Source of the DNA: a bacterium
GTDB taxonomy: Bacteria; Patescibacteriota; Dojkabacteria; JAKAPS01
DNA: 64,000 nt
Assembly: GCA_021806925.1 (NCBI GenBank)
Contig: JAKAPS010000001.1
Coordinates: 1,237 to 65,236, forward strand
Direction of reading: 5' to 3'
A program made the translations under genes and the position numbers. Position 1 is the stretch's first letter; every line of letters starts with the position of its first letter. The notes beneath the pieces were generated by a model, which searched no databases, was not told where the DNA came from, and worked only from the letters and a program-made list of their open reading frames with translations. This document shows positions 14,214 through 59,368 of the stretch, one piece after another.

Positions 14214-15056
14214 ATGAATCATATATTTTCAGTTGCAACATATAACATTGAGTTAAGTAAGAGACCTGAAAAATTAGTAAATAACATAAAAACAATTGCA
14301 GATAGAGGTGCAACTGCTATTTGTTTACAAGAACTATTAAAGAGAGATAAATTCATTATCGATATGATAGTTTCAAAACTCGGCAACAATTGGGAATATG
14401 AATACTTCATAGGTGAAGAACAAGATTATTTCGCACATGGTTGTGCAATATTATGGAATAATAGTGTTTTAAATATTACAAATACATATAGAATATTACT
14501 TCCTAAAATGAATAAACTCATAGCAACAGATATGTTATTGGAGCGTATTGCAGGATTTAAAGGATTACCAATGCAGAGGAGATGTATATCCTCCACATTC
14601 TCATTTAATAACAAGGAAATACGCATAACATCATTACATCTTGATTCAATGGGTGGAAGCAAGCAAAGAATAAAGCAGTTATCATATCTGTTAGAGTATC
14701 TTAAAAATAGTATTGATGTAGATTATGAAATCATTGCTGGTGATTTTAATAGCTTTGAATTCCATGAATACAAAAGATTACAAGATATATTTTCAAAATA
14801 TGGATTTAGTGATTCTACTAAAAGTATTGACTATAGTATTGATGTTAATAACATTGATTTCAGTGATAATGGCAATAATAGCAAGATGTATAAATTGGCA
14901 GCTGATATAATAAAAAAAGCAGTAATGCTCATGAATATACATTATCGAAAAAAATTAGATTACATATGGATAAAAGGATTGTTTCCAATCAATTCAGAAA
15001 GATCAAACCTACTTGGTTCTGACCATTATCCATTAATTAGCACAATTACAACTTAG
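14214..15056 (+). CDS. Endonuclease/exonuclease/phosphatase (EEP) family protein
   Basis: N-terminal ATYNIE, GDFNS and C-terminal SDHYPL are EEP hallmarks. Confidence 0.7.
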   Translation: MNHIFSVATYNIELSKRPEKLVNNIKTIADRGATAICLQELLKRDKFIIDMIVSKLGNNWEYEYFIGEEQDYFAHGCAILWNNSVLNITNTYRILLPKMNKLIATDMLLERIAGFKGLPMQRRCISSTFSFNNKEIRITSLHLDSMGGSKQRIKQLSYLLEYLKNSIDVDYEIIAGDFNSFEFHEYKRLQDIFSKYGFSDSTKSIDYSIDVNNIDFSDNGNNSKMYKLAADIIKKAVMLMNIHYRKKLDYIWIKGLFPINSERSNLLGSDHYPLISTITT

Positions 15057-15091
15057 ACATAAAACAGGGTTAGTTGTAGAAAATTAAAATA

Positions 15092-15724
15092 TCATCTCCG
15101 TCGATTATTATTTTTACTATATAAATCAACTATTAGAAGACCAATTCTTCTTCCAATATATGATGCTTCTATATGATCCGCAGTGATTGGTGTATCAGCA
15201 ATAACTTTCCTAAAAAATTTCATTATTTCTGTTCCATGTGCAAATGCAGTTTTGTATAACCGCCTATTACTACGATTCAATCCATAAAAAACAGCAGCAA
15301 ACATATGAGTCCAGAAATAGTAAGTATCACCGGGACTATCACTACAGTGATTGTTAAAAACTTCAAATTGAGCTATTTTCTTACTCCAAATAACCATATC
15401 GCTTTCAGTAACAGTTATGTTTGGATATGCTCTAGTATCAAGACCTCTTGCCATAATTCGTGTGGAAACAAATCCCAAGTGGAGTGCACCTAACAAGTCA
15501 TTATTAGTTATATCCATTAAAATTTCAAATTGTTTTGGAACCGTCACAATATCATCATAATTGCTAATCTTTTCTATGAATCTGTTAACGTCATATTCTG
15601 GAGGCAATACATCTTCAGGTATACTAGCACTATGGTAATCTGCAACTTGAATAATATATCCAAATAAGTTTATTTGGTTGTACGTTATATTTTTATTCCA
15701 GTATGGAATTTGGACACCTTCCAC
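15092..15724 (-). CDS. Hypothetical protein
   Basis: 210-aa ORF with no recognisable motifs. Confidence 0.35.
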   Translation of the reverse strand: MEGVQIPYWNKNITYNQINLFGYIIQVADYHSASIPEDVLPPEYDVNRFIEKISNYDDIVTVPKQFEILMDITNNDLLGALHLGFVSTRIMARGLDTRAYPNITVTESDMVIWSKKIAQFEVFNNHCSDSPGDTYYFWTHMFAAVFYGLNRSNRRLYKTAFAHGTEIMKFFRKVIADTPITADHIEASYIGRRIGLLIVDLYSKNNNRRR

Positions 15725-16009
15725 TAATTTTCAATCTCCCTTGAGTTTATAATATTAAAGAATGATTGAATTATTTCATTCTCTCTATTAAGTATCTCTG
15801 GTTTGCTAAAAAATTGTTCATTCCTGATCTGACTATAGATCCTCCTGTGTGTATCCACAATCTCTTTGTATGAACACAAACTAAAAAATGAATTCAATAA
15901 GAAGTTTATACTTCCCATTAAGTGTGATAATATCACTTTAATATAATAAATGTAATGCTCTTCTTATTAGCATAATATATATATTAATAGACTACAGAAA
16001 CATTAGAAA

Positions 16010-16864
16010 TTGATGAATAGAAATATTAATATTTATGATGATTTTGATCATGGTATAAATCCTACTTGGGTGCAGATTACTACTGGAGGTGGAAAAATAA
16101 GGATTCATAATTCTGTCCTGCGAATGTCTTTTAACTATGCAAATAAAGAAAGCTATACTGATGTACAACTTGATGATTATACATTACAGCTTGGATATGG
16201 ATTACCAATGCAGTCAAAATTTGTTTTTAAGTGGACACCTCCATTAAAAATGACAATACGTTCACGTTTCTCATTACATACTACAAAAGAAGGAGGAGAA
16301 GATAATATATTTCTTGGAACTGCTGGATTCGGGTTTTGGAATAATCCTTTTTCAATTAGCGGGAATGTATTAACACTCCCTGAAGTGATATGGTTCTTTT
16401 ACTCATCACCACCATCAAATATTGATTTAGTCCCTAACTTATATGGATATGGATGGAAAGCTCAAGTTATTCATTCTAATCGTTTAGAAGTACTACCATT
16501 GTCAATACATACATCAATTATTGGATTAATAGAGTTGATAATTGATAAAAAAAATATGAAATGTACAAGATATAATATTCAGAAATTATCTGGGACACAC
16601 GAATCCATACTTAATGTAGATGCCACATTATGGCATACCTACTCTTTAGAATGGAGAAAAAATAAATCTACTTTCTACGTAGACGGTGATATTGTTTTAG
16701 ATGTTAATCAAGCACCTACTCAATCCCTTGGATTTGTTGTTTGGATAGACAACCAATATGCAATATTTACACCAAAAGGACTAAAATTTGAATTTGGGAA
16801 ATTGAATACAAAAAAACAATGGATGGATATAGATTATATAAACATTGAACAAATAAATGATTAA
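16010..16864 (+). CDS. Hypothetical protein (possibly concanavalin-A-like beta-sandwich)
   Basis: 284-aa ORF. W..EWRKNKSTFYVDGDIV is faintly like the GH16/ConA-like fold. Confidence 0.35.
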   Translation: MMNRNINIYDDFDHGINPTWVQITTGGGKIRIHNSVLRMSFNYANKESYTDVQLDDYTLQLGYGLPMQSKFVFKWTPPLKMTIRSRFSLHTTKEGGEDNIFLGTAGFGFWNNPFSISGNVLTLPEVIWFFYSSPPSNIDLVPNLYGYGWKAQVIHSNRLEVLPLSIHTSIIGLIELIIDKKNMKCTRYNIQKLSGTHESILNVDATLWHTYSLEWRKNKSTFYVDGDIVLDVNQAPTQSLGFVVWIDNQYAIFTPKGLKFEFGKLNTKKQWMDIDYINIEQIND

Positions 16865-16912
16865 TGTATTCAACTTCAGTGCCTACAACTCAAACTCAGT
16901 AACTAGTATCTT

Positions 16913-17326
16913 ATGTTTTCTGTCTTTCAAGTGATAGTGTGTCATAAACATCAGTACGATATAACTTGGTGCATTTTTGATAAGGATGATTTTTCATTAA
17001 GAAAAGCCTGTAGTTTAGTGAAAAAGAAAAACATATATGTTGATTATTCAAATAAATCATTTGAACTTTGGTATTTACTACATTTTGAATATAGATCCAA
17101 TGCAATTTCAAATGAACAATATAAAGCAAAATTATCAAAGTATCTGCGTGAGGAATATAACAAAACTTCAACTAAAATGTACGATTTATTAAAGGATAAA
17201 CAACAATACGCAATCTGTAATGCTAAGAAATTGTTTGAATACTACAATAAAAAAGATCCAGATAAGAATGATCCATCAACAATTGTATTTGAACTTGTAG
17301 AAAAATTAAATCAATATATTAAATAG
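16913..17326 (+). CDS. RloB-like domain protein, N-terminally truncated (possible gene remnant)
   Basis: IFDKDDF and SFELWYLLHFE match the conserved core of RloB (PF13707). The typical N-terminal segment of about 60 aa is missing, and an in-frame stop lies 9 nt upstream of the ATG. Confidence 0.5.
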   Translation: MFSVFQVIVCHKHQYDITWCIFDKDDFSLRKACSLVKKKNIYVDYSNKSFELWYLLHFEYRSNAISNEQYKAKLSKYLREEYNKTSTKMYDLLKDKQQYAICNAKKLFEYYNKKDPDKNDPSTIVFELVEKLNQYIK

Positions 17327-17336
17327 TTCAGATAAT

Positions 17337-17410
17337 TGGAGATGATGGGACTCGAACCCACAATCCCTGCAATGCGAATGCAGTGCTTTACCAAATTAAG
17401 CCACATCCCC
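17337..17410 (-). tRNA. tRNA-Ala (anticodon CGC)
   Basis: The reverse complement folds into a 74-nt cloverleaf: acceptor GGGGAUG/CAUCUCC with the G3:U70 Ala identity pair, D-stem GCUU/AAGC, anticodon stem CUGCA/UGCAG with loop UUCGCAU, and T-arm GUGGG-UUCGAGU-CCCAU. No CCA is encoded. Confidence 0.85.
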
Positions 17411-17460
17411 CTATTTTTTATATTATCATCAATATGATATATAATCAAAACAGATATAAA

Positions 17461-17679
17461 ATGATTGGATCATCAAATCTTAAAACAATCACAGATCTAA
17501 GGAAATTCACTCTAAATATTCTTAATACTGTTACAACAAACAGATCTCATATATACATATTATCAAGATCAAAGCCACTTGCAGTAATAATATCAATGGA
17601 GGAATACGGTAAATTATTGAAATATAAAAGAGAAGCTAAGCTATATAAAAAGAAACTCATTGCTCAAAAAGCATATTAA
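17461..17679 (+). CDS. Phd/YefM-family type II antitoxin (orphan)
   Basis: ITDLRKF...RSKPLAVIISMEEYGKLL matches the Phd/YefM fold signature. The ORF-track start (17383) overlaps the tRNA, so the internal Met at 17461 is used instead. No toxin ORF follows. Confidence 0.55.
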   Translation: MIGSSNLKTITDLRKFTLNILNTVTTNRSHIYILSRSKPLAVIISMEEYGKLLKYKREAKLYKKKLIAQKAY

Positions 17680-18709
17680 CTGTTGTTCCGCCAATCTCAT
17701 TAGCTTTAATATCAAGTTTACCATTATGTTCTATTACATATTTCCTTACAATTGAAAGTCCAATACCAAAAGGAATATCAGAAGAAATTCCTATACCAGT
17801 ATCTGAAATAGAAACGCTAAGATATCTATTTTTCCTATTGCAACATTCTATGATTTCTGTTTGTATATCAATCTTTCCATTTACAGTATATTTTATAGAA
17901 TTATACAGAACATTAATAATACATTCCTCAAACTTTGTCTTATCTAATAATACATACTTATCCCCCTTATGAGAAAAACTAATTGTTATATTGTTTTGCC
18001 TGAGCAAAATTTTTGATTCATTTATTATAGATTCAACTGATGAACAAATAGAAAAACTTTCTAATTCAATTAATCCGTTTTTACCAATGTTCTTAAATAT
18101 CCTTATAGCCCGATTAACAGCATTTCTAGCATATCCAATATATTCGTTCTCTTGAGTTTGAAGTGATATTGAGTCCTTTATTATTGATAACTGTGTATTT
18201 ATATCATGTGCAAACATTTTGTACTCCATATTTTCAGCACTTAATGAAATATATTTTGAGAAGTTATAGGCAATAATAGACAAGAAGTCTATATTAATAT
18301 TTTCTTTTTCAAGAGCAATTAACAATACACATTGATTGTCTCCATAAACCTTAACAGGAATACTAACAACAGATGCAACATTAAATACTTTTTGTATAAT
18401 CTTTGCACTATTCTTCATTTGACTAACAGTGAAATCTTCACATTTTCTACTTTGGAATATCTTATTACTTAAATATGATTTGCTTATATTATTGTCATCA
18501 TTCATCATATATTTTATATCCTTCAATTTAACTGGCAAATATTCAAGCGATGATTCTACAATTTTTTTCTTACTTGCACATAGTGGTGATAAGTAATTCG
18601 AGTTGTTAATAATATTGTTTAGTACTGGACAAAACAACAAAACACCTTTAATAAATGGTATATCATCGAACAAATCAACATACATCTGGTAAATATCCTC
18701 TATGTTCAT
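17657..18709 (-). CDS. Cytoplasmic sensor histidine kinase
   Basis: H-box FAHDINTQL and HATPase_c motifs (LYNSIKYT, SDTGIGIS, GIGLSIV). No TM helices. Confidence 0.7.
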   Translation of the reverse strand: MNIEDIYQMYVDLFDDIPFIKGVLLFCPVLNNIINNSNYLSPLCASKKKIVESSLEYLPVKLKDIKYMMNDDNNISKSYLSNKIFQSRKCEDFTVSQMKNSAKIIQKVFNVASVVSIPVKVYGDNQCVLLIALEKENINIDFLSIIAYNFSKYISLSAENMEYKMFAHDINTQLSIIKDSISLQTQENEYIGYARNAVNRAIRIFKNIGKNGLIELESFSICSSVESIINESKILLRQNNITISFSHKGDKYVLLDKTKFEECIINVLYNSIKYTVNGKIDIQTEIIECCNRKNRYLSVSISDTGIGISSDIPFGIGLSIVRKYVIEHNGKLDIKANEIGGTTVNMLFEQ

Positions 18710-18732: not shown

Positions 18733-19155
18733 TTATTTAAGAATTTCCAATATTTTTGATAATATTTGAACTGGAGTATAGTCACTTTTCTCAAGATAAT
18801 AGTCAGATTCTAAAACACCAGCATTATACTCTCCATTTTCAAAAACATTAGTAAGTACAACAGTTATTATTTTTATTGAATTAGTGTTTATATATGTAAG
18901 TAATTCGACTCCTGATGACACTGGCAATAGAAGGTCAATAATTGCTAAATCGATCTTCTGATTTTGCAATTTATTAATTGCACTTTTAACATCATGAGCA
19001 TTAAAGACATTAAATCCAGCGGACGTCAATACATTATAGTACATCCTAGATACAGGAATCTCATCTTCAAGAAGCAAGATACTTTTTAAATGATTTTTTC
19101 TAAATTCTAAAATATCCATAGCTAATACTAAATACTTTTTTAGCATGTAAATCAA
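18733..19155 (-). CDS. Response regulator receiver (single-domain, CheY-like)
   Basis: LLLEDE acidic pocket, a phospho-acceptor Asp in LAIIDLLLP, and the 140-aa length. Confidence 0.75.
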   Translation of the reverse strand: MIYMLKKYLVLAMDILEFRKNHLKSILLLEDEIPVSRMYYNVLTSAGFNVFNAHDVKSAINKLQNQKIDLAIIDLLLPVSSGVELLTYINTNSIKIITVVLTNVFENGEYNAGVLESDYYLEKSDYTPVQILSKILEILK

Positions 19156-21458: not shown

Positions 21459-23480
21459 ATGAAAGGGAAAATCTTGCTATTGTTTTTTATTCCCTTACTG
21501 TCTATTCTCTATTTTTTTAGACCATTTACAAATGTATACGGTGCTACAGTTTGCTCTAATACACCAAATGAATTAAATATAAGCAACCAATTTTTACAAA
21601 ATAACGTTTATGCAGGAGTTCCATTTCCTCTTGTTATTTATGCATGTAATTCAAGTGGTCAAATAGATTCTACATTTAATGGAAATGTTCAATTGACAGA
21701 TAGTACAACTACTCTCTACCCATCTAGTACAACTAATTTTGTCGATGGTGTATGGTCTGGGCAAGTTACAATAACTAGAGCAATTAATTCTGATCAAATA
21801 ACTGCATACAGTTCTCTTTATGGAAACGGTATATCATCATCATTTAATGTATTACCTTCAGAAAATGGAATAATTGAAACAATAATACAGGGTTCAAATC
21901 AATCTGGGGTAGTAGGAAGCAATCTTCCACAGGCATTAAGTGTTACAACAACTGACCAATTCGGGAATATAGTCTCAGGCGTTGGCGTCACATTTACAAT
22001 TGCTCCTCCACCTAGTGGTGCTACAGGACAAAGCCTTTCAAACTATAGTGCAATTACTAATTCCAGTGGTTCTGCATCAACAGTGATGACATTAGGTACG
22101 AAAGAAGGAATATACATTGTTACCGTTCAAGTCTCAACTGGATCTTCAAAAACAAGCTCACAATATTATGAGTATGCTAGTAGCGGATCACTTGCAGTGT
22201 TAAATATATCTCCAGCAAGTGCTATTGTTCCTCAAGGAGGAGTTATTAATTTTCAAGCAAGCGGACTTGATAAATATGGTAATCCAGTAACAATATCTTC
22301 ACCTGTTTGGTCAATATCTAATGGTGGAGGTACAATCGATCAAAATGGAAATTTTACTGCAGGACAAACAACTGGCATGTACTATAACACAGTTTCTGCT
22401 GCAATCGGAGGTATAGGAACTACAGCAACAGTTAATATAATTTCAGCACAAAATGGTTCAGGGAGTGGAACAGGAGCTACATCAACACCAACTCCATCTC
22501 CAACTCCTACTCCAGACTATGTAACTGTTACACCAACTCCAACACCAACTCCTGATTATGTCACATTAACACCTACTCCATCACCAGATCCTATCGATCA
22601 TGTGCTTATAAATCCAAATCCTGTAACCGTTTCTCAAGGTGAATCAGTGTCTATTACTGCAACTGCGTATGATGCAAATAATAATCCATTGAATGGAACA
22701 TTTAATTGGGTTATATCAACTGGACTTGGAACACTTAGTTCAAATTATGGATCAAGTGTTACTTTGAATGCTGGTAATACACCTGGAAATGGTACAATAT
22801 CAGTTTCTGCTCTTAATTCAACAGGATCAAAAAGTGATACTGTAAATGTAACAATAATTCCTAGCCCGCTCGCACAAAAATTACTTAATGATAATATTGG
22901 AGGAGGACACTTCTATATAAAAAACATAGGGAATCAGACTACAAACACTCCATTTCTTGTAATAGTTATGGCAGAAGATAACAACAATAATATAATTAAG
23001 AATTTTAATAGTCCTATTGTAATTGATGATACTACGCATACAATAACACCTGGTAGCGGAACTAATTTCATAAACGGAATATGGTCTGGAAACGAAGTTA
23101 TCACAACTCCACAGAATAATGATGTTGTATCTGTTTCTGGCGGTGGTATAACTGGAACAAGTAATGAGTTCAATGTTACTGGTAAATCACCTCCAAATAT
23201 ATTTTCAACACTATCAAGCAAAATATCAAGTGTTATTGTACAAGCAAATAGTGGAACAAATTCTAAATTTGATTCAAGAATAATTAGTGCTGGATTAATA
23301 TCTGGTCTTGGACTTCTAGGTAGCGCACTAAGTATTGGACTAATGTCTTCAAAGGGCTTAGAGGCAATTGGAAGAAACCCCTATGCAAGAGGGAAGATAC
23401 AAATCTCAATGTTAATATCAACAGTGGTATGTATCGGAATATCTATTGCAGGGATTGTACTGTCTATAGTAATAAAGTGA
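21459..23480 (+). CDS. Large secreted Ig-like (Big) domain protein with a Thr/Pro linker and a C-terminal ATP synthase c-subunit-like transmembrane hairpin
   Basis: Signal peptide, then repeated beta-rich segments resembling bacterial Ig-like domains. A TPTPSPTPTPDYVTVTPTPTPTPDYVTLTPTPSPDP linker follows. The C-terminal 65 aa (GLISGLGLLGSALSIGLMSSKGLEAIGRNPYARGKIQISMLISTVVCIGISIAGIVLSIV) align with F-type AtpE (GxGxGxG helix, ARQP-like loop, second helix). Confidence 0.55.
   Translation: MKGKILLLFFIPLLSILYFFRPFTNVYGATVCSNTPNELNISNQFLQNNVYAGVPFPLVIYACNSSGQIDSTFNGNVQLTDSTTTLYPSSTTNFVDGVWSGQVTITRAINSDQITAYSSLYGNGISSSFNVLPSENGIIETIIQGSNQSGVVGSNLPQALSVTTTDQFGNIVSGVGVTFTIAPPPSGATGQSLSNYSAITNSSGSASTVMTLGTKEGIYIVTVQVSTGSSKTSSQYYEYASSGSLAVLNISPASAIVPQGGVINFQASGLDKYGNPVTISSPVWSISNGGGTIDQNGNFTAGQTTGMYYNTVSAAIGGIGTTATVNIISAQNGSGSGTGATSTPTPSPTPTPDYVTVTPTPTPTPDYVTLTPTPSPDPIDHVLINPNPVTVSQGESVSITATAYDANNNPLNGTFNWVISTGLGTLSSNYGSSVTLNAGNTPGNGTISVSALNSTGSKSDTVNVTIIPSPLAQKLLNDNIGGGHFYIKNIGNQTTNTPFLVIVMAEDNNNNIIKNFNSPIVIDDTTHTITPGSGTNFINGIWSGNEVITTPQNNDVVSVSGGGITGTSNEFNVTGKSPPNIFSTLSSKISSVIVQANSGTNSKFDSRIISAGLISGLGLLGSALSIGLMSSKGLEAIGRNPYARGKIQISMLISTVVCIGISIAGIVLSIVIK
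22486..22590 (+). repeat. Imperfect tandem repeat DNA encoding the TPTPTPDYVT(V/L)TPTP linker
   Basis: ACTCCAACTCC...GACTATGTAACTGTTACACC units are visible in the sequence. Confidence 0.5.
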
Positions 23481-23672: not shown

Positions 23673-23715
23673 GATTCGTCTACCCCAAATCTCCGATTTT
23701 GACAATTATCGGAGA
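23673..23715. repeat. 43-bp direct repeat, copy 1, containing an 8-bp palindrome (TCTCCGAT-N10-ATCGGAGA)
   Basis: GATTCGTCTACCCCAAATCTCCGATTTTGACAATTATCGGAGA. It matches copy 2 at 41 of 43 positions. Confidence 0.8.
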
Positions 23716-23734
23716 TCTGTGTTAATATTTACAT

Positions 23735-24982
23735 ATGGATGAAACTTTAGCTATACAAAATCCATGGTGGGAAGGAAGGCCATTGAAAAAATCAGTAGAA
23801 AGGAAAGAAGCACTATATGCCCTTAAACAAAGAGTAAAAAATAATAGAGTTTGTATGCTACTCGGTGGAAGGAGAGTTGGTAAAACGACCCTTATACATC
23901 AATACATTGGCGAATTATTGAATACTGGTGTTGAACCAAAAAATATATGCTATATTCTTCTTGATTCTAATGCATTCGAGAAGATATCAATATTTGAACT
24001 AATAAGAAAATACCGACAAATACACAACTTAAAAAGAGATGAGAATGTTTATTTATTTCTTGATGAAATTCAATATAAGGATAATTGGGAGCAATATATC
24101 AAAAATATTTATGATACTGAACCAAATATAAATGTTATGTTATCTGGATCAGCAAGTTTTAAAATTCATACTAAAACCTCATTTTTAACTGGACGATTTT
24201 CAATTCTTTATCTTTATCCCTTGTCATTTAAAGAATTTCTTCAATTTAAAAACATACAAATCTCCCTATCTGAAAAGTATATATATGAAAATGAGTTAAA
24301 TGAATATCTTCTAAAAGGAGGTTATCCTGAATATCTTTTGACTGAAGATTATCAATACTTTCCAAATCTGGTTGACAGTATAATCTATAAGGATTTTGTC
24401 GAATATTTCAATATAAAGAATCTAAACATAGTAAAAGATTTACTTAAGCTTATTGCTGATAGAACTGGATCTCATACGAGTCTTTCAAAATTAGGAAAAA
24501 TATTATCAATAGCCAAGGAAACAGTAAGAGATTATGTCTTTGCACTAAAGGAAACATTTACTATTTATGAATTACAAAGATATGCTACATCAAGAAATGA
24601 AAGGATTTACTTTCCCAAAAAATATTATATAAATGATAATGGTTTATTATTTAACTTGAGCGGTAAGTTTAATAAAGGGCAAGTTGCAGAGCAAACACTT
24701 TTTGATTTCTTATATAAAAAGTATAATGAATCATTGTACTTTTATTATTACGATGGTATAGAGATAGATTTTCTTATTAAGGACGCTGATGGAATTCAGT
24801 TAATTGAATCTAAATATATTAATGATGTAGAAGAATTCGATTCGAAATTACTTGTTAAAGCTATGGAGACATTGAAAGTTAGTAAGGCTGTTGTAATAAC
24901 AGAATCTCTTGAAAATACAATAGAATTTAGTAATAAGTCTATAGAATATATTCCCCTATGGAAATATATTCTTTCTCTGTAA
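23735..24982 (+). CDS. AAA+ ATPase of the AAA_14/DUF4143 family
   Basis: Walker A GGRRVGKTTL, Walker B LFLDEIQ and the characteristic C-terminal DUF4143-like region. Confidence 0.8.
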   Translation: MDETLAIQNPWWEGRPLKKSVERKEALYALKQRVKNNRVCMLLGGRRVGKTTLIHQYIGELLNTGVEPKNICYILLDSNAFEKISIFELIRKYRQIHNLKRDENVYLFLDEIQYKDNWEQYIKNIYDTEPNINVMLSGSASFKIHTKTSFLTGRFSILYLYPLSFKEFLQFKNIQISLSEKYIYENELNEYLLKGGYPEYLLTEDYQYFPNLVDSIIYKDFVEYFNIKNLNIVKDLLKLIADRTGSHTSLSKLGKILSIAKETVRDYVFALKETFTIYELQRYATSRNERIYFPKKYYINDNGLLFNLSGKFNKGQVAEQTLFDFLYKKYNESLYFYYYDGIEIDFLIKDADGIQLIESKYINDVEEFDSKLLVKAMETLKVSKAVVITESLENTIEFSNKSIEYIPLWKYILSL

Positions 24983-25008
24983 ACTATACAGAAACGTATC
25001 TGACAAAA

Positions 25009-25051
25009 GATTCGTCTACCCTCAATCTCCGATTTTGACAATTATCGGAGA
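25009..25051. repeat. 43-bp direct repeat, copy 2, with the same internal palindrome
   Basis: GATTCGTCTACCCTCAATCTCCGATTTTGACAATTATCGGAGA. With copy 1 it brackets the AAA ATPase gene. Confidence 0.8.
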
Positions 25052-51050: not shown

Positions 51051-52778
51051 ATGTATATAAAGGATGTTATAAAAGATGCTAAGCAATATGCCAGGCATCT
51101 TGGAAAAATGCGAGTTAGCCCAAATATTCTTCTTTTTGCAATGTTGAAAGATAAAAAAATAGAAGCTGATTTCGTAATTAACAATTCAAATATAAATTTT
51201 TTAAAATATATACTTAATCCGAATGTTCTAAAAACAACAAATTCTCCTAGAAACATTCAGCTTTCAACTTCTCTTCAGCGTATTGTATCAGGATATAAGA
51301 GGAGTGACTCGGCATATGATCTGTTTATACGTCTACACAATGAGAAATACATACGGGATATATTAAGTATTGCTGATTATTCATATAAACAGAATGAGGA
51401 TTTGTATGGTTTTTTCATAAAAAAATATTGTAACAAATTACAGACAGGTAAAGTACTTGATAAGCAAGTTCCTGTATATAGGAAAATGCTTAGGGCATCA
51501 AAGCACCATAATATATCTCTAATAACTTCAAGCGGAAATATGTCGAGCGAAGTCATAAAAAATTTTGCAAAATATGTTGATAAAAAGAGTACAATATTTT
51601 CATTTGATTTATTCAAATTACTTTCTGAGTCTGAGGGCAGTCTATTTTCTATTGTAAGCGGAATATTTAGTGAGATTGATAACAACTATATATATATCCC
51701 TAATTTTCTACAGACAGTGTATTGGATTAAGGCACTCAACTACAAGGACCTATATATGTTGCTTCTTACAAAATCAAAACAATGTAAAATAATAACTAAA
51801 GTATCAAGAAATAGACTTGATAGAGATATTTATGCTGAAGGGAATATAATGAATATGTTCTTTATAAATTCACCACAAGTAACTTTTAATGAATTAAGGG
51901 ATATATTATGCGAAAAGGCAAAAGAGTATGAACTATTCTATGACATCAATATAACATCAAAGGAAATTGATGATGCAATAAAATCAAGTATTGAGTTTTC
52001 AAAATATTTATCCCAACCAGCAAGTTCGATTAAAATGCTTTCAAGAACTGCACTGATTAAATATTCTAATGAGGAAGAAAAGTTTAATATAGATCACAAC
52101 AATGATAATATACAGAACAATGTAAATAAATTATTAAAATTAAAAACAATTCTTCTTGATAATATAATTGGACAAAATCAACAAATAGATAGCTTTGTAG
52201 AATCCTTGGGAAAGGCTAATCTTAACAATGATAATATGATTCTATTGAATTACATATTTGAAGGAGAGTATGGCGTTGGTAAATTCACTTTAGCCAGATT
52301 AACTGCTAACTTCCTTTTTGGTCAGGACTCTATATGTTTTATTGATTTAAGTAATTATGCTAAGACACCATACAAATATAAGTTTGAATATGATTTAAAG
52401 AGAACATTAGAGAGTTTTTATGGTGGAATAATATATTTAGAAAACTTTGATCAAATTGATATGGATGAGATAAATCCGTTAGAATTAATAAAGAAATTAT
52501 TAAAAGAAATACCTCAAAGTTCATATATTCTTGGATGTATTGTTATTGCATCGATTCATAATAATCTACAGAATTTAAAGAATAGTATAAGTATAATCAA
52601 CAACTTCGATAAAATAATAATATTCAATAAATTATCAATTCGAGATCTAGAGAAAATATCTGTAATGGAAACTGTTAAATCAAAGAAATATATAAAAACA
52701 GTTCGTAACCCTCTATTTCTTTCTGTAAATGCAGAGATTAACAATGCACATGATATAAAGGCAATGACACTTAAATAA
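51051..52778 (+). CDS. ClpB/ClpA-like protein with Clp_N-like N-terminus and a degenerate (probably inactive) AAA+ module
   Basis: Clp_N-like AKQYARHLGKMRVSPNILLFAML. D2-like DNIIGQNQQIDSFVESLGKA with Walker A GEYGVGKFT (Thr changed to Phe), Walker B IIYLENFD (DE changed to EN) and an SRC-like region. Confidence 0.45.
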   Translation: MYIKDVIKDAKQYARHLGKMRVSPNILLFAMLKDKKIEADFVINNSNINFLKYILNPNVLKTTNSPRNIQLSTSLQRIVSGYKRSDSAYDLFIRLHNEKYIRDILSIADYSYKQNEDLYGFFIKKYCNKLQTGKVLDKQVPVYRKMLRASKHHNISLITSSGNMSSEVIKNFAKYVDKKSTIFSFDLFKLLSESEGSLFSIVSGIFSEIDNNYIYIPNFLQTVYWIKALNYKDLYMLLLTKSKQCKIITKVSRNRLDRDIYAEGNIMNMFFINSPQVTFNELRDILCEKAKEYELFYDINITSKEIDDAIKSSIEFSKYLSQPASSIKMLSRTALIKYSNEEEKFNIDHNNDNIQNNVNKLLKLKTILLDNIIGQNQQIDSFVESLGKANLNNDNMILLNYIFEGEYGVGKFTLARLTANFLFGQDSICFIDLSNYAKTPYKYKFEYDLKRTLESFYGGIIYLENFDQIDMDEINPLELIKKLLKEIPQSSYILGCIVIASIHNNLQNLKNSISIINNFDKIIIFNKLSIRDLEKISVMETVKSKKYIKTVRNPLFLSVNAEINNAHDIKAMTLK

Positions 52779-52882
52779 GGAGTTAAGTTAGAATTATAAG
52801 ATTTATAGACACATGAAAATTGTATTTTTACTTTAAAATTCAATTATATTATGTTTTCTGGTATCATCAATAGGGAAATTAA

Positions 52883-54457
52883 ATGAAACAGCATGTTGTT
52901 CCACAGAATATTATGAGTGTGGAATTTAAAATCATTGGGGATTTGACTATTCATCAGTTTGTATATATTGCAATCGCTGGTGGTATATGTTTTGTTCTTT
53001 ATGTTGCCTATCTGCCAGGAATAATAAAATGGATGTTAATTATCATTGTAGGATTCATAGGAATACTTGTTGCATTAGCGAAGGTTAACGAAAGACCATT
53101 TGATGTTTGGATAAGCAATTTTATAGTTGCTATTCTATTACCTACAGAACGTGTATGGAAGAAGGAATATACTATCCCAGATTTTCTAGTATCACAAAAA
53201 AAACTCGATTCATTGAAGCCAATTAAAATTGATCAAAGGAATTCATACAAAAAACTTAATAATTATCTCCATTCAATCAACATGCAAACTGATGCAATTA
53301 GTAGATACAATACTAAAATGGATATTGAAGAGATAAAATTTCTTAACTCTATAAAAGATACAATTGACGGATTAAATAAAAAAGAAACTATTGCTGAAAA
53401 AAACAATTCAGCAATACTACCTATCAGTGCAAATATATATACAAATCCTGCTGGTGCTAAAATAAATGATAGCAATGTGCTGAGTAATAATCCAATCAAT
53501 GATACGAATACAGAATCTAGCAATGAAGAGAAAATAAAAAATATTGTACCAACGGAATCGGCATCTACATTACAAGAGGAATCTAACGAAAATGATACTA
53601 CAAACAATATAGCGTTAGATGAAGACAAGCATAATGCTGTTGGAATAGATAAACATGATATTAATTCTGTTGGTTCAGACAATTTTGATATTAATGCTGT
53701 TGGTTCATACAATATTGATATTAAAGACATTATTACTAATTTAACACAGAAAGATGATACAAATTCAGATAGAAATAACATAGCAGTGGATAATTCTATT
53801 GGAGATGATTCTAATAAATTAGCAGATTTACCTCCAATAGATATTAATACCTTGCTGACTGAAAGAAAGGATTATGATACCAAAAGCGATAAAAATGATA
53901 GGTTATTAAAAGTTGAAGAAGAAAAGATTGAGAATTTAGAGATTGAAAATAAGATTCTTAAAGAGGAAATTGAAAATATAAAGAAAACAATTGGTAATAA
54001 GACAGAAAGTATAGCTAAACAAAATGAACAAGTCCAACCTAGTAAACAAGAGGATACTGATATAAAGACTCTAGATAAAGTAAATACACCTGAGAATGAA
54101 GGTGAAAGTTTAGTTGCATCAAGTGAAGAGCTAAATAAAGCAATAGGATATATGCCTGATTATACAAAGCTACCTAATATAATTTATGGAGTTGTTCTTG
54201 ATACACAACTGAAGCCAATTACAGATGTTGTAGTAATAATAAAAAATAATAAAAACGGTAATATAATTAGAGCATTAAAAACAAACTTTCTTGGACAATT
54301 TTATTCACGTACACCTTTGCAAAATGGAGAATATATAATTGAAGCAAACAAGGAAGGAATTGTTTTTATTCCTACAAGTATTATAATTGATTCAGATAGA
54401 ATAAAACCTATCATTATAAAACCACAATCAGTGAATGAAGATATTAAATTAATATAA
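52883..54457 (+). CDS. PrgI-like (VirB3-analog) membrane domain fused to a long Asn/Asp-rich and coiled-coil region with a C-terminal beta-sandwich (CarboxypepD_reg-like) domain
   Basis: The N-terminus (SVEFKIIGDLTIHQFVYIAIAGG...ALAKVNERPFDVWISNFIVAIL) matches the PrgI family pattern (two TM helices plus the NGRPF-like motif). Heptad-like EEKIENLEIENKILKEEIENIKK and VVLDTQLKPITDVVVIIKNNKNGNIIRALKTNFLGQFY also occur. Confidence 0.5.
   Translation: MKQHVVPQNIMSVEFKIIGDLTIHQFVYIAIAGGICFVLYVAYLPGIIKWMLIIIVGFIGILVALAKVNERPFDVWISNFIVAILLPTERVWKKEYTIPDFLVSQKKLDSLKPIKIDQRNSYKKLNNYLHSINMQTDAISRYNTKMDIEEIKFLNSIKDTIDGLNKKETIAEKNNSAILPISANIYTNPAGAKINDSNVLSNNPINDTNTESSNEEKIKNIVPTESASTLQEESNENDTTNNIALDEDKHNAVGIDKHDINSVGSDNFDINAVGSYNIDIKDIITNLTQKDDTNSDRNNIAVDNSIGDDSNKLADLPPIDINTLLTERKDYDTKSDKNDRLLKVEEEKIENLEIENKILKEEIENIKKTIGNKTESIAKQNEQVQPSKQEDTDIKTLDKVNTPENEGESLVASSEELNKAIGYMPDYTKLPNIIYGVVLDTQLKPITDVVVIIKNNKNGNIIRALKTNFLGQFYSRTPLQNGEYIIEANKEGIVFIPTSIIIDSDRIKPIIIKPQSVNEDIKLI
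53633..53722 (+). repeat. 3 x 30-bp in-frame tandem repeat (encodes NAVGIDKHDI / NSVGSDNFDI / NAVGSYNIDI)
   Basis: AATGCTGTTGG(A/T)..GATATT units, read directly. Confidence 0.75.
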
Positions 54458-54485
54458 AATTATAGAGAAAAAAATAAATTAAAAT

Positions 54486-55190
54486 ATGAAGAACCAAACA
54501 CATGCTTCAACACAAAGTCATCTTGATATAGAGGATATAAGGGATGATTTAGTTATTTTGAAAAATGGGAAAGTTGATCTTGTGCTTGAAACTACAGCAA
54601 TCAATTTCTCTCTTCTTTCAGAGATGGAACAGGATGCAAGAATAAATGGATTTGCTGGATTACTCAATTCATTGAATTTCCCATTACAAGTGTTTATACA
54701 CACTGAAAGTGTTGACATAACAAAGTACATTGCGAAAATTAAAGAATATAAGAAAAATGCAAAAAATGAAAAAATTGCATTACAAATTGATTATTATCTT
54801 GATTTTATTAAAGGATTAATTGAGAAAAATGAGGTGTTAGATAAAAGGTTTTTCTTAATAATTCCCTATTATCCAGAAACTTTAAAGAAAACAAACCCGA
54901 TAAAAACAGCCATGGGTAAAGAAGAGAGAATATTAAATATTGATGGATTGATTGAGAAAGCAAAAATTGAATTAATACAAAGGAAGGATACATTAATCAA
55001 ATTATTGCTTAGAATGGGGTTAAGAACAAAGCAACTAACAACCGAAGACCTTATAAATCTTTTCTATAAGCTATATAACAGTGACTCAATATCACTTAAT
55101 ACAATAAAATCACCAAAGGAGGATTTTCTTGCACCAATAGTATCTTCAGAGGTTGACTTTATATCTACAAATCCAAATGAAATAAATTAA
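54486..55190 (+). CDS. Protein resembling the N-terminal domain of VirB4/TraC-family ATPases (stand-alone)
   Basis: IEDIRDDLVILKNGKVDLVLETTAINFSLLSEMEQDARINGF follows the VirB4 N-terminal consensus (dG.l..v.e..g.nf.L.seeeq). There is no ATPase motif. Confidence 0.4.
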   Translation: MKNQTHASTQSHLDIEDIRDDLVILKNGKVDLVLETTAINFSLLSEMEQDARINGFAGLLNSLNFPLQVFIHTESVDITKYIAKIKEYKKNAKNEKIALQIDYYLDFIKGLIEKNEVLDKRFFLIIPYYPETLKKTNPIKTAMGKEERILNIDGLIEKAKIELIQRKDTLIKLLLRMGLRTKQLTTEDLINLFYKLYNSDSISLNTIKSPKEDFLAPIVSSEVDFISTNPNEIN

Positions 55191-55193
55191 AAT

Positions 55194-57188
55194 ATGAGCC
55201 AAGATGATACTAAAAACATTACATCACCTATAGTTAATAGTCCTGTAAAACCTACAACTAATAATAAAAAAAGTAATAAAGTACCTTTTATTGGAGCTAT
55301 CTCAGACATTATTGACATTGCAAGATTCTTCTTTTTTTCGCAAGGAAAATCAGATAACTCAGAGGTAATGATATCAAAAGAAGTATCTGAATTTAGTGAC
55401 GGAATTGTTACAGTTAGAGATATATTAGCTCCATCTTCTATTGAAGTAGATTTTGACTACATAAAAATTAATCAGAAATATTATAGAACATATTTTGCGG
55501 CGCTATTTCCTAGGTTTGTAAATGCAAATTGGCTTGCTCCATTAATAAACTTTGAAAGAACTATTGATATATCGATGTACTACTTTACTGTAGATTCAAG
55601 AGAAGTTATGCTCAAATTAAGGAGAAAAATTGCTGAAATGGAAGCAACATTGAATACACTTAATGAGCAAGGGAAAGTTCTTGATCCTAATGTAAAAGTT
55701 GCCTTAGAGGACGCAAACCTATTACAGGAGCAACTTGCGAAAGGTGAAGAGAAATTTTTTCACTTCTCTGTTTATATAACAATTCAAACTGACACTGAAG
55801 ATGAATTAAATAAATTTGGGAAGGAACTTGAAACTGTATTAAGTGCAAGCGGATTAATTATAAAATCTGCATACTTACAACAAGAATTTGCATTTCAATC
55901 AGTAATCCCTACAAATAATGATAAACTTATGGTTGTCAGAAATATGGATACTACATCAATAGCAACCACATTTCCTTTTATTTCATCAGATCTTTCCTCT
56001 GATTCAGGAATTTTATATGGAATAAATAAATATAACAAAGGATTAGTAATTTATGATAGGTTTTCAAATGAAAACTATAATACTGTAATTTTTGCTCGTT
56101 CTGGGGCAGGTAAAAGTTATTTAGCAAAACTTGAGGCACTACGCTCTTTAATGCTTGGTGTTGAGGTCATTATAATAGACCCTGAAAGAGAATATGAAAA
56201 GCTATGTACTGTTGTAGGAGGAAGTTACCTGTCATTTTCCCAGGATGGTGCAAGTAAAATAAATCCGTTTGACCTATCAGGAATATATGATACAGATGAA
56301 GATGAACTGAGATTTAAAATACTATCTCTTCATGGACTATTCCGTATCATTCTCGGGAATGGTAATAATGAGCAGTTAACTGCTATTGAAAGTGCTGTAC
56401 TAGATAAAGCAATAATAAACACGTATAGAGAAAAAGGAATTACAACTGATCCATTAACACAGAAGAAGGAGCCCCCTGTTCTTCAAGACTTATATAAGGT
56501 TCTTCTATCTATGGAAGAAAATGAATCTCAATCCCTTGCGAAAAGACTTGAGAAATTTATTACAGGTAGTGCTTCAGGTATTTTTGATAAAAAAACAAAT
56601 ATAGAAATAAACAATGAGTTCACAGTATTCTCAATTAGAGACCTTTCTGAAGAATTAAGACCTGCAGCAATGTATCTTATGCTTGATTACATTTGGACAA
56701 AAGTAAAAAAGAAAAAAAAGAAAAGGATACTTATGATTGATGAAGCATGGATATTGATGAAATATCCAGATAGCGCCCAATTTATAAATGGATTAGCCAA
56801 GAGGGCAAGAAAGTACTACCTTGGAGTAACAACCATAACTCAAGATGTAGAAGATTTCTTTGCTACAGATTATGGAAAGGCTGTTGTTAATAACGCTGCA
56901 ATGCAGATACTTCTAAAACAAAGCCCAAGTGCAATAAACAATATTCAAAAAGTATTCTTTCTTTCTGATGGTGAAAAAGATCTACTACTCAATTCAGCTC
57001 CAGGTGAGGGTTTGTTTTTTGCAGGAGCAAATCATGTTGCAATAACTATTAAGGCTAGTGAATATGAGCACAACTTAATAACAAGCAACCCACAGGATAT
57101 AATAAATCAAGAAAAAGAAGCTTTGAAAAATGAATATAAGAATTCGCAACAGCTGAATAATGGAACAATATCAAGAAGAGCAAACTAA
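55194..57188 (+). CDS. VirB4/TrbE/PrgJ-family ATPase (T4SS or Ced-type translocation ATPase)
   Basis: N-terminal domain with SDGIVTVRDILAPSSIEVDFDYIKIN...FHFSVYITIQ. Walker A FARSGAGKSYLAKL, Walker B ILMIDEAW and ITQDVEDFF. Confidence 0.8.
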   Translation: MSQDDTKNITSPIVNSPVKPTTNNKKSNKVPFIGAISDIIDIARFFFFSQGKSDNSEVMISKEVSEFSDGIVTVRDILAPSSIEVDFDYIKINQKYYRTYFAALFPRFVNANWLAPLINFERTIDISMYYFTVDSREVMLKLRRKIAEMEATLNTLNEQGKVLDPNVKVALEDANLLQEQLAKGEEKFFHFSVYITIQTDTEDELNKFGKELETVLSASGLIIKSAYLQQEFAFQSVIPTNNDKLMVVRNMDTTSIATTFPFISSDLSSDSGILYGINKYNKGLVIYDRFSNENYNTVIFARSGAGKSYLAKLEALRSLMLGVEVIIIDPEREYEKLCTVVGGSYLSFSQDGASKINPFDLSGIYDTDEDELRFKILSLHGLFRIILGNGNNEQLTAIESAVLDKAIINTYREKGITTDPLTQKKEPPVLQDLYKVLLSMEENESQSLAKRLEKFITGSASGIFDKKTNIEINNEFTVFSIRDLSEELRPAAMYLMLDYIWTKVKKKKKKRILMIDEAWILMKYPDSAQFINGLAKRARKYYLGVTTITQDVEDFFATDYGKAVVNNAAMQILLKQSPSAINNIQKVFFLSDGEKDLLLNSAPGEGLFFAGANHVAITIKASEYEHNLITSNPQDIINQEKEALKNEYKNSQQLNNGTISRRAN

Positions 57189-57416
57189 TATATATTCAAT
57201 TCTAAATTACTCTTTACAATGGATTTATTGATTCTGTCAAGCAATTAACTATTAATTCCATGAATAATAGATTCAGTACAAGCTTTTTATTCAAAAAAAG
57301 TAATCCTAGAAAAATATAATTAAAATTATCCTTATATACCCTGGTAAAATGAAATAGATTGCAAAAATAAATTTATTAATATAAACTTCCGCTAGAACAA
57401 AATAGAAAGGAAAAAA

Positions 57417-57698
57417 ATGAAAAATATATTTTTCCTTTCCCCAATAGTAGTGTATGCATCTGTATACACAATTCCCCAGCTGCAAAGTACTGTGAACAAC
57501 ATTACAGATACACTTTCATGGATTATTGGAAGTTGTATCGTGTTATTGATAACAAATTTTGGAATTCAATTTATTCTATCATCTGATAATCCGCAAGAAA
57601 GGGCTAAACTAAAGACTAAAATTGTTTGGTCAATAATCGGCCTATTCATAGTTATTTTTGCAAAAGATATATCTATATGGATACAAAATATTATATAA
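57417..57698 (+). CDS. VirB2/TrbC-like pilin candidate (small two-helix membrane protein)
   Basis: 93 aa: signal-like N-terminus, a hydrophobic helix, a short polar loop (SSDNPQERAKLKTK) and a second helix. It sits immediately after the VirB4-like gene. Confidence 0.35.
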   Translation: MKNIFFLSPIVVYASVYTIPQLQSTVNNITDTLSWIIGSCIVLLITNFGIQFILSSDNPQERAKLKTKIVWSIIGLFIVIFAKDISIWIQNII

Positions 57699-58756
57699 CA
57701 ACACAATTAAAGCAATTTGGAATTCTTATAAAGCTTATAGAAATAATAATTGTAATAATTATAACTACTGTTTACTACAACAATTCAAATATATTAAAGA
57801 ATAACTCATCAATAGCTTCTACACATATAAATAAGGCGACTAGTGCCACGTTAGTGGGTACTGGTCGTATTGGATCTGGAGCAATTTCAAGCACATGCTA
57901 TACAAGTTACTCAATTAATGTCTTAAGTGATGCTCTGGAGTTTTTAACATGTCAATTTAACAATATATTTGGAGAGTATGTGTTTTCCACTGAGAATTTA
58001 TTTAATAATAGTGAATTCACTATATTTGAATCAAATATACAGAATATGGCTCTATATTTAATTCCACTTGCAATAATTATTGTTACCTCAATTGAATTGC
58101 TAAAATATGTTGAAGGAAAAGGAGATAGCATTGTAAGCATCCTTTACGAATTTATATTAAATGTAATTTTAATAATAATCTTACCTAAAATATTTTCTTT
58201 GCTTATAGATTTCACAAATTCAATATCAAATTACTTCTCAAGTATTTCATTTAACAAAAGCACATCACTTGCTTCAAGTATTAATTCTGTATTTTTCGAG
58301 CAGAATTCATCAATACCAGGAATTGCACTTGATATACTTTGGATTTTCTTATTCTCTGCCATATTATTCATAACTGTATTCTTTCTATTCAGATTCATAT
58401 TTATATACTTGTCATATTCAGTTATCCTACTATTAATACCTTTTATAAATATAAAAATTGTTAAGAATTTGTTACTTTCAATTAGCGAAAAAACTATTCA
58501 ATTTATTCTAATTCAACCGATATTTATATTAAGCGTTAACTTCTTCCTGTTTATAGTAAAAACAAGCTCACTAAATGTTAACAGTATAATATTTACTTTA
58601 GCCCTTGTTTTATCTCTGTCATTTATACCAGTATATTTTACAGGATTAACAGTTTCAAGGTTCTCAAGCATATCAAATTCTAAAATTAGAGGTGCAGTAA
58701 GAGGCAGTATTGTTAGATTGGATATGATTGCTAACGATATAATTAAATCTCTATGA
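57677..58756 (+). CDS. VirB6/TrbL/CedA-like polytopic membrane protein
   Basis: One N-terminal TM, an external loop of about 100 aa, then at least five TM helices. The start is set at the internal Met (track start 57626). Confidence 0.45.
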   Translation: MDTKYYITTQLKQFGILIKLIEIIIVIIITTVYYNNSNILKNNSSIASTHINKATSATLVGTGRIGSGAISSTCYTSYSINVLSDALEFLTCQFNNIFGEYVFSTENLFNNSEFTIFESNIQNMALYLIPLAIIIVTSIELLKYVEGKGDSIVSILYEFILNVILIIILPKIFSLLIDFTNSISNYFSSISFNKSTSLASSINSVFFEQNSSIPGIALDILWIFLFSAILFITVFFLFRFIFIYLSYSVILLLIPFINIKIVKNLLLSISEKTIQFILIQPIFILSVNFFLFIVKTSSLNVNSIIFTLALVLSLSFIPVYFTGLTVSRFSSISNSKIRGAVRGSIVRLDMIANDIIKSL

Positions 58757-58968
58757 ATTATAGAATTCAAATTCTTATTGCAATAATTATTTTAGGATTA
58801 CTTGCACAAGATATTTTTATTAGGATTTTAGTATTAATATCATGCATGTTTTATTTAACAACTGTTATTCGTTATAGAGCCAAATTACTTATATCCTATA
58901 TACCAGTCATTCTTATGTTTTTATTTAGAAGAAAAATATATGTTAAAAAATATAGAAGAGATATTTAA
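58753..58968 (+). CDS. Small two-TM membrane protein
   Basis: 71 aa, overlaps the upstream gene by 4 nt. Confidence 0.3.
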   Translation: MNYRIQILIAIIILGLLAQDIFIRILVLISCMFYLTTVIRYRAKLLISYIPVILMFLFRRKIYVKKYRRDI

Positions 58969-59368
58969 TATAAAACAGATTAATGCAAATGATGTACTTT
59001 TCAAGGATAATTCTCATTGCTATATATATAAAATAAGGAATGTTGAAAACGAGATGCTACTAAAGTTTCTTAAAATGACAACTAAAGAGGCTACAATATA
59101 TTTTTTTAAGGAAAACTATATATTCGACACATACATTGAAAAATTGCTTGATAACAATCTAAATGAAAGGCATCTTGGATTTCTTCTTCAATATATTTCA
59201 TACTTGAATAAGACGAATATACAGGGACTTGAGATCTTTTTACTTGTTAAGCAGGATAATGGTTCAGTCAACTCAATTGATGAATATATATATAAATTGA
59301 GAATAGATATACAGAAGACAGATACAAAAACAACACACGACTTCTTTGTAAAATTGTTATGCAATTAA
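58940..59368 (+). CDS. Hypothetical protein immediately upstream of the second VirB4-family ATPase
   Basis: 142 aa, soluble. Confidence 0.3.
   Translation: MLKNIEEIFNIKQINANDVLFKDNSHCYIYKIRNVENEMLLKFLKMTTKEATIYFFKENYIFDTYIEKLLDNNLNERHLGFLLQYISYLNKTNIQGLEIFLLVKQDNGSVNSIDEYIYKLRIDIQKTDTKTTHDFFVKLLCN

Follow-up and report, generated by a model that had tools for sequence, protein, structure and literature searches.

Putative remnant of an AbiL/RloAB defence module beside tRNA-Ala(CGC) and a toxin-free Phd/YefM-like gene in a Dojkabacteria contig

The locus described here lies in a stretch of 64,000 nucleotides of a Dojkabacteria genome assembly (GCA_021806925.1, contig JAKAPS010000001.1, positions 1,237 to 65,236), hereafter called the window, in which all positions are counted. 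It comprises an RloB-like open reading frame (ORF) of 137 aa (16913–17326, plus strand), the transfer RNA (tRNA) gene tRNA-Ala(CGC) (17337–17410, minus strand), and a gene for a Phd/YefM-like protein of 72 aa (17461–17679, plus strand). The RloB-like ORF converges on the tRNA, its stop codon ending 10 nt short of the 3′ end of the tRNA gene, whereas the Phd-like gene begins 50 nt from the tRNA 5′ end and is divergent from it. The tRNA is the sole one in the window and was recovered by both ARAGORN and Rfam (RF00005, 67.3 bits versus a gathering score of 29); it carries a G3:U70 acceptor pair, its CCA is not encoded, and it lies on the minus strand with its 3′ end, at 17337, against the RloB-like ORF, as an earlier reading of the sequence alone (the original prediction) had placed it. 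The window has a guanine plus cytosine (GC) content of ∼29% throughout, and ∼86% of it is coding. We consider it likely that the three features are unrelated neighbors, namely the stump left by a deletion in a defence module, an ordinary tRNA gene, and a toxin-free Phd-fold gene belonging to the lineage.

The RloB-like ORF was assigned to the RloB family by Pfam (PF13707, E = 1.7e-26, 94.1 bits; cut-off, 31.5), which bore out the family name originally proposed, and to AbiLii, the TOPRIM-like nuclease of the AbiL/RloAB pair, by PADLOC (E = 2.4e-16). The Pfam match was confined to profile positions 63–195 of 195, the C-terminal two thirds. In total, 12 homologs were found, including the ORF's own entry, and the other 11 measured 176–233 aa; full-length homologs had 200–233 aa, the exception being one 176-aa sequence from a 739-nt contig. 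Alignment of the homologs (alignment A1) placed the N-terminal motif lIvCEGxKTEPnYF in nine of the ten aligned homologs; this motif and ∼60 further N-terminal residues were absent from the window ORF, and every invariant residue from WCxFDKDDF onward was kept. The tblastn alignments of homologs to the window began at homolog residues 63–97, and the N-terminal loss amounted to 62–79 residues, varying with the homolog compared, in line with the ∼60 aa estimated in the original prediction. The best intact homologs were 49–54% identical to the ORF, the retained 126 residues of which matched the RloB Pfam family.

The missing part was mapped onto an AlphaFold2 (AF2) model of the full-length homolog P0003, with a predicted local distance difference test score (pLDDT) of 78. 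The model has the order β1 (residues 23–29)-α1-β2-α2-β3 (residues 76–82)-α3-β4, followed by a helical C-terminal part. On this map, the first residues of the window ORF fall at the end of α2; β3 (WCIFDKDDF), β4 (SNKSFELWYLLHFEY), and the helical C-terminal part are kept, whereas β1-α1-β2-α2 are gone, leaving the ORF without the CEGxxTE acidic motif borne on β1 and with only two of the four core strands. Comparison of the RloB sequence profile with the Protein Data Bank (PDB) gave spurious weak matches only, a Foldseek search of PDB was unspecific, and OLD/TOPRIM folds were not singled out by fold searching. An internal deletion, suggested by a MAFFT alignment that put VIVCH of the window ORF under LIVCEG of the family, was rejected as a four-residue coincidence; tblastn aligns residues 4–11 of the ORF to the end of helix α2 of homolog P0002.

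Upstream of the ORF, an in-frame TAG stands at 16904–16906, 7–9 nt ahead of its ATG, and is the stop codon that had been noted 9 nt upstream. It falls within a 48-nt junction or deletion scar (16865–16912) that separates the ORF from the stop codon of a GH16-like/concanavalin-like gene (16010–16864, plus strand; weak Pfam GH16 match), which lies directly upstream and forms the left edge of the junction. No coding remnant of the RloB N-terminus or of a partner ATPase was found upstream in any frame, either in the sequence, in three-frame translations, or by tblastn, so the missing part was probably deleted rather than frameshifted.

A truncation of this kind could also be an assembly artifact, produced by a chimeric join of the GH16-like gene to the middle of rloB, and one contig from the same region (L012, ENA ERZ27233560, 854 nt) is a clear fold-back chimera or structural variant. 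However, the same junction was found in a 152-kb Logan contig (L001) and, identically, in L002, an ENA contig assembled independently and from a different sample, which carries single-nucleotide polymorphisms (SNPs) of its own (99.3% identity to the window, with seven SNPs over 1063 nt, four of them within 17411–17460), and an NCBI contig of 206,887 nt is recorded with the same protein. An artifact at this junction is accordingly regarded as extremely improbable. The anomalous contig L012 corresponds to window positions 17288–18114 and consists of the reverse complement of 17288–17487 joined to 17447–18114. Its reversed part holds the 3′ end of the truncated rloB, the tRNA, and the start of the Phd-like gene, and the join occurs at an inverted microhomology of 9 in 10 positions (TTTGAACTTG / CAAGTTTAAA). 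The contig may be a fold-back chimera from amplification or assembly, or else a true inverted duplication in that strain.

The organization from which the ORF may derive was assessed at three intact homolog loci, on a Cloacimonadota-type contig, in Fundicoccus, and on one further contig. At all three, an AAA_21/SMC_N ATPase gene of 426–462 aa lay on the same strand directly upstream of rloB, the two genes being up to 28 nt apart or overlapping by as much as 17 nt, in keeping with the earlier statement that RloB is normally paired with an AAA ATPase. The two of these ATPases that were scanned matched AbiLi in PADLOC (E = 1e-94 and 5e-103) and, secondarily, AriA of the PARIS system (E = 5e-41 and 2e-38). 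In the window, tblastn of the whole 64 kb with two AbiLi queries gave nothing better than E ∼ 1, and no AAA_15/AAA_21 defence ATPase was present in the Pfam annotation of 1–27 kb and 45–64 kb, in which the sole AAA_21 match was an ABC-transporter ATPase; the interval from 27 to 45 kb was covered for the ATPase by tblastn only, outside the Pfam context. The claim that no RloA-like ATPase lies nearby was therefore upheld by both approaches. Intact homolog copies were situated on mobile DNA, with a MobL/VirB4-like element at one locus and rve/DUF772 fragments at another, which makes a horizontal origin of the relic likely.

AbiL, the Campylobacter RloAB pair, and PARIS form one class of defence systems that combine an ABC ATPase with a TOPRIM/OLD nuclease (PMC13064643, PMC11464382), and in the NetFlax study an RloB-type TOPRIM_OLD protein was shown experimentally to be toxic and to be neutralized by its AAA partner (PMC10440598). 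On this model, the intact module would have consisted of an AAA_15/21 ABC ATPase gene (abiLi/rloA; the sensor, or the antitoxin in NetFlax terms) followed within a few bases by abiLii/rloB, encoding a toxic TOPRIM/OLD-like nuclease effector. One deletion would have taken the ATPase gene together with the first 62–79 nuclease codons and fused the remainder 48 nt behind the GH16-like gene; the nuclease would thereby have lost half of its central sheet as well as strand β1, the bearer of the conserved acidic CEG/TE motif. Loss of the neutralizing ATPase would presumably be tolerable only if the nuclease were disabled at once, and a deletion reaching across both genes would achieve that. A toxin-antitoxin pairing of the RloB-like ORF with the Phd-like gene was considered and rejected: NetFlax ties RloB-type toxins to AAA ATPases, and a Phd partner was not reported (PMC10440598). 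Such a pairing is also disfavored here by the opposite-strand tRNA between the two genes.

The sequence of the ORF itself bears on whether it is still in use. It was 50–53% identical to its four closest homologs, which were 48–58% identical among themselves; divergence is thus not elevated and the frame is still open, so that either the deletion is recent or the ORF has not yet been eroded. Its GC content was 0.256 and its GC content at third codon positions (GC3) was 0.217, compared with 0.29 for the window and a GC3 of ∼0.19–0.20 for its neighbors. The sole other strain covering the ORF had no SNPs in its 414 nt, leaving no variation from which to read selection. A consensus scan found no promoter-like site in the 48-nt gap ahead of it, and since only seven of 58 genes have a Shine-Dalgarno (SD)-like motif and promoter-like matches were at or below shuffle expectation, SD or promoter signals are uninformative as to its expression.

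Retention of the ORF by selection, as a functional stand-alone C-terminal half of AbiLii with a new role (e.g., a decoy or modulator of ATPase-plus-TOPRIM systems, or a nucleic acid-binding helical domain), would agree with an open frame of 137 codons in AT-rich DNA, with the preservation of all family-invariant residues of the retained region, with its unremarkable divergence, with its fixation in at least two independent samples, and with the compactness of the genome. This is nevertheless judged very unlikely, because according to the structural model half of the central β-sheet would be gone and the domain would be unlikely to fold, no similarly short homolog was found among the proteins recovered (the 176-aa sequence on the 739-nt contig coming nearest), the gap ahead of the ORF has no promoter-like site, and the absence of SNPs across its 414 nt carries no signal of constraint. 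As far as sequence comparison goes, the ORF is best described as a 5′-truncated, dead relic of an AbiL/RloAB two-gene module, probably without defence function.

The coding region of the Phd-like gene was taken as the ORF beginning with the ATG at 17461; a 98-aa ORF beginning with a GTG at 17383, which overlaps the tRNA, was rejected as the gene. Ahead of the 72-aa ORF lies an AT-rich intergenic region (17411–17460, 14% GC) that is divergent and contains a promoter-like TTTATA-17-TATAAT at 17417–17445, identified by consensus scan as its candidate promoter. The original prediction of a Phd/YefM-type ORF without a toxin, its C-terminus overlapping a histidine-kinase gene, held: the 72-aa protein matched PF02604 with E = 6.5e-7, just under the gathering score, and the last 23 nt of the gene overlap the 3′ end of the convergent kinase gene. 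No toxin gene adjoins it, the downstream neighbor being the convergent kinase gene and the upstream neighbor the divergent tRNA. A Phd/YefM fold was further suggested by a related protein (P0142) with a precomputed Pfam match of E ≤ 1e-5, by a profile of the clade whose best match in PDB was the YefM-type antitoxin 7v5y (E = 1.2e-3), and by an AF2 model (pLDDT 84) for which nearly all of the top 25 Foldseek matches in PDB were Phd/YefM-family antitoxins (YefM, Phd, RelJ, RelB), although these matches were weak (E ≥ 0.17, template modeling scores of 0.4–0.55).

Comparison of the window with the 96%-identical strain represented by L012 revealed 12 synonymous and two nonsynonymous differences in the Phd-like gene, giving a ratio of nonsynonymous to synonymous polymorphism (pN/pS) of 0.049 and indicating strong purifying selection. 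A word-index homolog search returned only the protein itself; an exhaustive HMMER search recovered eight homologs, the best two of which, P0142 and P0143, measured 71 and 74 aa and were 55% and 54% identical, respectively. A more distant relative of 96 aa (P0147) is the Phd partner in a classical Phd-ParE pair, and its C-terminal extension has no equivalent in the short clade.

The contigs that carry the two close homologs represent distinct lineages with similar surroundings of the gene. P0142 is encoded on L010/L011, a genuine relative of the window lineage (GC 0.27), which shares with the window DeoC (73% identity), an ABC ATPase (63%), QueA (50%), a response regulator (41%), an ABC permease, a HisKA kinase, and a ferredoxin, all between 41 and 73% identical. 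On these contigs, the 3′ end of the response-regulator gene, the counterpart of the one in the window, shares 4 nt with the Phd-like gene, which has a small membrane ORF and an ABC transporter on its other side and is accompanied by neither a toxin nor a tRNA. On L013 (GC 0.36), the P0143 gene and a HATPase_c kinase gene converge, with 33 nt of overlap at the 3′ end of the latter, again with no tRNA and no toxin. RloB is absent beside the Phd-like genes of L010/L011 and L013, and an extended −10 element of the TGATATAAT type was found shortly upstream of all three Phd-like genes.

Conservation of this kind ran counter to the proposal that the Phd-like gene is a decayed leftover, since it persists at ∼55% identity in L010/L011 and L013, an outcome that the original prediction had itself named as speaking against its reading; on the comparisons made here it is a conserved, selected gene of the lineage and not island debris. 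It would fall in a short, toxin-free clade that appears to be vertically conserved in an AT-rich uncultivated lineage, always tail-to-tail with a two-component gene, and its product may most plausibly be a small dimeric DNA-binding regulator, that is, a domesticated antitoxin, rather than an antitoxin proper. A classical orphan antitoxin, kept as insurance against addiction or toxins after loss of its toxin or with the toxin encoded at another site, would equally show the Phd/YefM fold and Pfam match and would fit the pairing of the more distant relative with ParE; yet three lineages only ∼55% identical share the toxin-less state, the length of 71–74 aa, and the linkage to two-component genes, which points to an old and stable state, and the purifying selection on the gene is strong. 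An orphan antitoxin is on balance unlikely. A more specific proposal, in which the short clade of 71–74 aa (window, L010, and L013) is a dedicated regulator of, or partner to, the two-component pair, optionally with the AbiLii stump kept as a functional mini-protein, is offered tentatively and is held to be less likely than not.

The position of the relic against a tRNA had suggested the decayed edge of a tRNA-integrated defence or mobile island. The RloB side of such an island might have been an AbiL module brought in by an integrative element with the 3′ end of tRNA-Ala(CGC) as its target; the integrase, the distal attachment site (att), the ATPase gene, and the 5′ portion of rloB would then have been lost in later deletions, so that the island's last gene now stands against the tRNA. 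Apart from the nearness of the relic to the tRNA 3′ end, the location of intact AbiL homologs on mobile elements and the lack of close homologs of the adjoining GH16-like gene are in its favor, as is the fact that a 3.2-kb block (14214–17410, comprising an EEP-phosphatase gene, a gene for a 210-aa protein, the GH16-like gene, the truncated rloB, and the tRNA) coincides with a break in synteny with L010; the L010/L011 contigs are rearranged relative to the window and are without any tRNA. However, the 25-nt 3′ end of the tRNA had no second copy in the window at up to three mismatches, pieces of 12–30 nt from the tRNA 3′ half had no same-strand match there at graded mismatches, and a survey of direct repeats in 1–30 kb found none involving the tRNA, although it brought out the pair around 23735–24982 described below. 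The att scan returned just one match, at 23445, where a 14-nt internal stretch of the tRNA recurs in inverted orientation, which was put down to chance. Among the annotated genes of 1–27 kb, including the 3′ side of the tRNA (1–17 kb), there was no integrase, recombinase, or transposase, and no compositional step was seen, both GC and GC3 of the relic being host-like. Integrases usually adjoin the tRNA, whereas here a converging effector gene does, and the model requires several unobserved deletions.

Integration at tRNA-Ala is hence unsupported, and we hold it to be rather unlikely. What stands of the island proposal is that the RloB-like ORF is the decayed remnant of a defence module; integration at the tRNA, for which the expected second copy of the tRNA 3′ end as a direct repeat was not found in the window, and the inclusion of the Phd-like gene as debris do not, the latter also because an island integrated at the tRNA 3′ end would not occupy the 5′ flank, where that gene is situated. 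The tRNA-Ala(CGC) would instead be a normal tRNA gene, with the relic, the tRNA, and the Phd-like gene being three unrelated neighbors, and the closeness of the tRNA to the relic fits the role of tRNA flanks as hotspots for foreign DNA and rearrangement.

Two further matches touch the tRNA. The 14-nt inverted copy mentioned above is an exact copy of the anticodon-stem/variable-loop sequence (ATTGCAGGGATTGT), located at 23445–23458 within a coding region resembling an ATP synthase c subunit, and is probably due to chance. Additionally, a sub-threshold Rfam match to the antisense RNA HPnc0260 (17246–17372, plus strand; 34.9 bits versus a gathering score of 59, E = 0.46) covers the 3′ ends of the relic and the tRNA and was also regarded as chance.

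Several points weigh against reading the locus as a deletion stump, an ordinary tRNA, and a toxin-free lineage gene. The intact allele that preceded the deletion was found nowhere, and the deletion is deduced from the architecture of the family; the relic is a clean 137-codon ORF in a genome of 29% GC, in which random ORFs are short, and is free of SNPs in the one other strain that covers it, so that it may yet retain a function; the Phd-like ORF scored 29.5 bits with PF02604, 0.3 bit below the gathering score of 29.8; the regulator role of its product is read from the fold and the conserved neighborhood only; and the relatives are represented by only ∼8 kb of one and 1 kb of another. The reading of three unrelated neighbors nevertheless remains the likely one.

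Beyond the Phd-like gene lie a histidine-kinase gene (HATPase_c; 17657–18709, minus strand, with a gene-caller start at 18685) and, in an operon with it, a response-regulator receiver gene (Pfam Response_reg; 18733–19155, minus strand; 41% identity to its L010 counterpart). The GH16-like gene on the other side of the locus had >1,200 homologs, none above 50% identity and many from Ktedonobacteraceae, and may itself have been acquired horizontally; synteny could not be traced through it, its best homologs (≤50% identical) being in unrelated contexts. No match was obtained for the kinase protein among GTDB species representatives, for a degenerate tRNA-Ala(CGC) pattern in GTDB and JGI metagenomes, or for the Phd clade alignment in JGI metagenomes. 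Among ∼15 billion proteins clustered at 90% identity, the ATP synthase alpha and beta subunits, QueA, a ClpB-like protein, and the Tyr/Trp-tRNA synthetase of the window were singletons. The host lineage is isolated, with no close relatives in the searched collections.

Elsewhere in the window, a 415-aa AAA_14/DUF4143 gene (23735–24982) gave a PADLOC match to PDC-S01, a candidate defence family (E = 5.7e-73). Direct repeats of 43–47 nt (23673–23715 and 25009–25051, 95% identical) flank it on both sides, each with an 8-bp hairpin (TCTCCGAT...ATCGGAGA) and found nowhere else in the window, and the interval 23673–25051 has the appearance of a one-gene cassette that was inserted shortly upstream of the atp b/delta/alpha/gamma/beta genes. 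A 673-aa ORF (21459–23480) directly ahead of the atp genes contains Big_1-type Ig-like repeats and Pro/Thr-rich linkers, and its last ∼60 residues resemble the hairpin of an ATP synthase c subunit (weak Pfam ATP-synt_C); it could be a fusion or have a mis-called start. A cluster resembling type IV secretion or conjugation systems spans 51051–60606 and includes a PrgI-like protein, a TraC-like protein, a VirB4/TraG-type ATPase, a type IV secretion system pilin, and a second DUF87/FtsK-like ATPase; genes for RNase H and DNA polymerase III delta come after it. Across the window, an SD-like motif preceded only seven of 58 likely genes, and many genes had a TATAAT-like box within ∼25 nt of the ATG, which together suggest short or absent leaders in the host organism.

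Loci of this kind matter mainly for annotation, since automatic defence-system finders will score the relic as RloB/AbiLii although it is unable to be a working system, and calls of an orphan antitoxin can hide conserved, toxin-free Phd-fold regulators. The joint loss of the ATPase and of the catalytic end of the nuclease illustrates that the nuclease of ATPase-plus-TOPRIM modules is probably not tolerated alone, and the Phd clade linked to two-component genes may offer a small lead for studies of antitoxin domestication.

Compared with known systems, the site resembles tRNA-integrated genomic islands in having a foreign-looking fragment of a defence gene right at a tRNA 3′ end, but it differs from them in having no att repeat, integrase, or compositional signature. 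The Phd-like protein would share the N-terminal DNA-binding and dimerization fold with Phd/YefM antitoxins of type II systems (YefM-YoeB, Phd-Doc, RelJ-RelK, and Phd-ParE); unlike those, it has no toxin gene downstream of its own gene and is without the toxin-binding C-terminal extension that the ParE-linked relatives have, and its clade consists of single genes placed tail-to-tail with kinase or response-regulator genes in three lineages. The ancestral module of the relic would share with PARIS (the ABC ATPase AriA plus the TOPRIM nuclease AriB) and with OLD-family nucleases the combination of an ATPase sensor or neutralizer with a TOPRIM-type effector; however, AriB belongs to DUF4435 and not to RloB, significant sequence similarity between AbiLii and AriB was not reported (PMC13064643), and tRNA-Lys, which PARIS targets, has not been linked to the tRNA-Ala found here. 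The closest counterparts are AbiL of Lactococcus lactis (AbiLi plus AbiLii) and RloA/RloB of Campylobacter jejuni, with which the window ORF shares the RloB Pfam family and the PADLOC AbiLii match; in contrast to both, it is without the ATPase gene and without the 62–79 N-terminal nuclease residues that include CEGxxTE, and is thus a relic of such a system and not a system itself.

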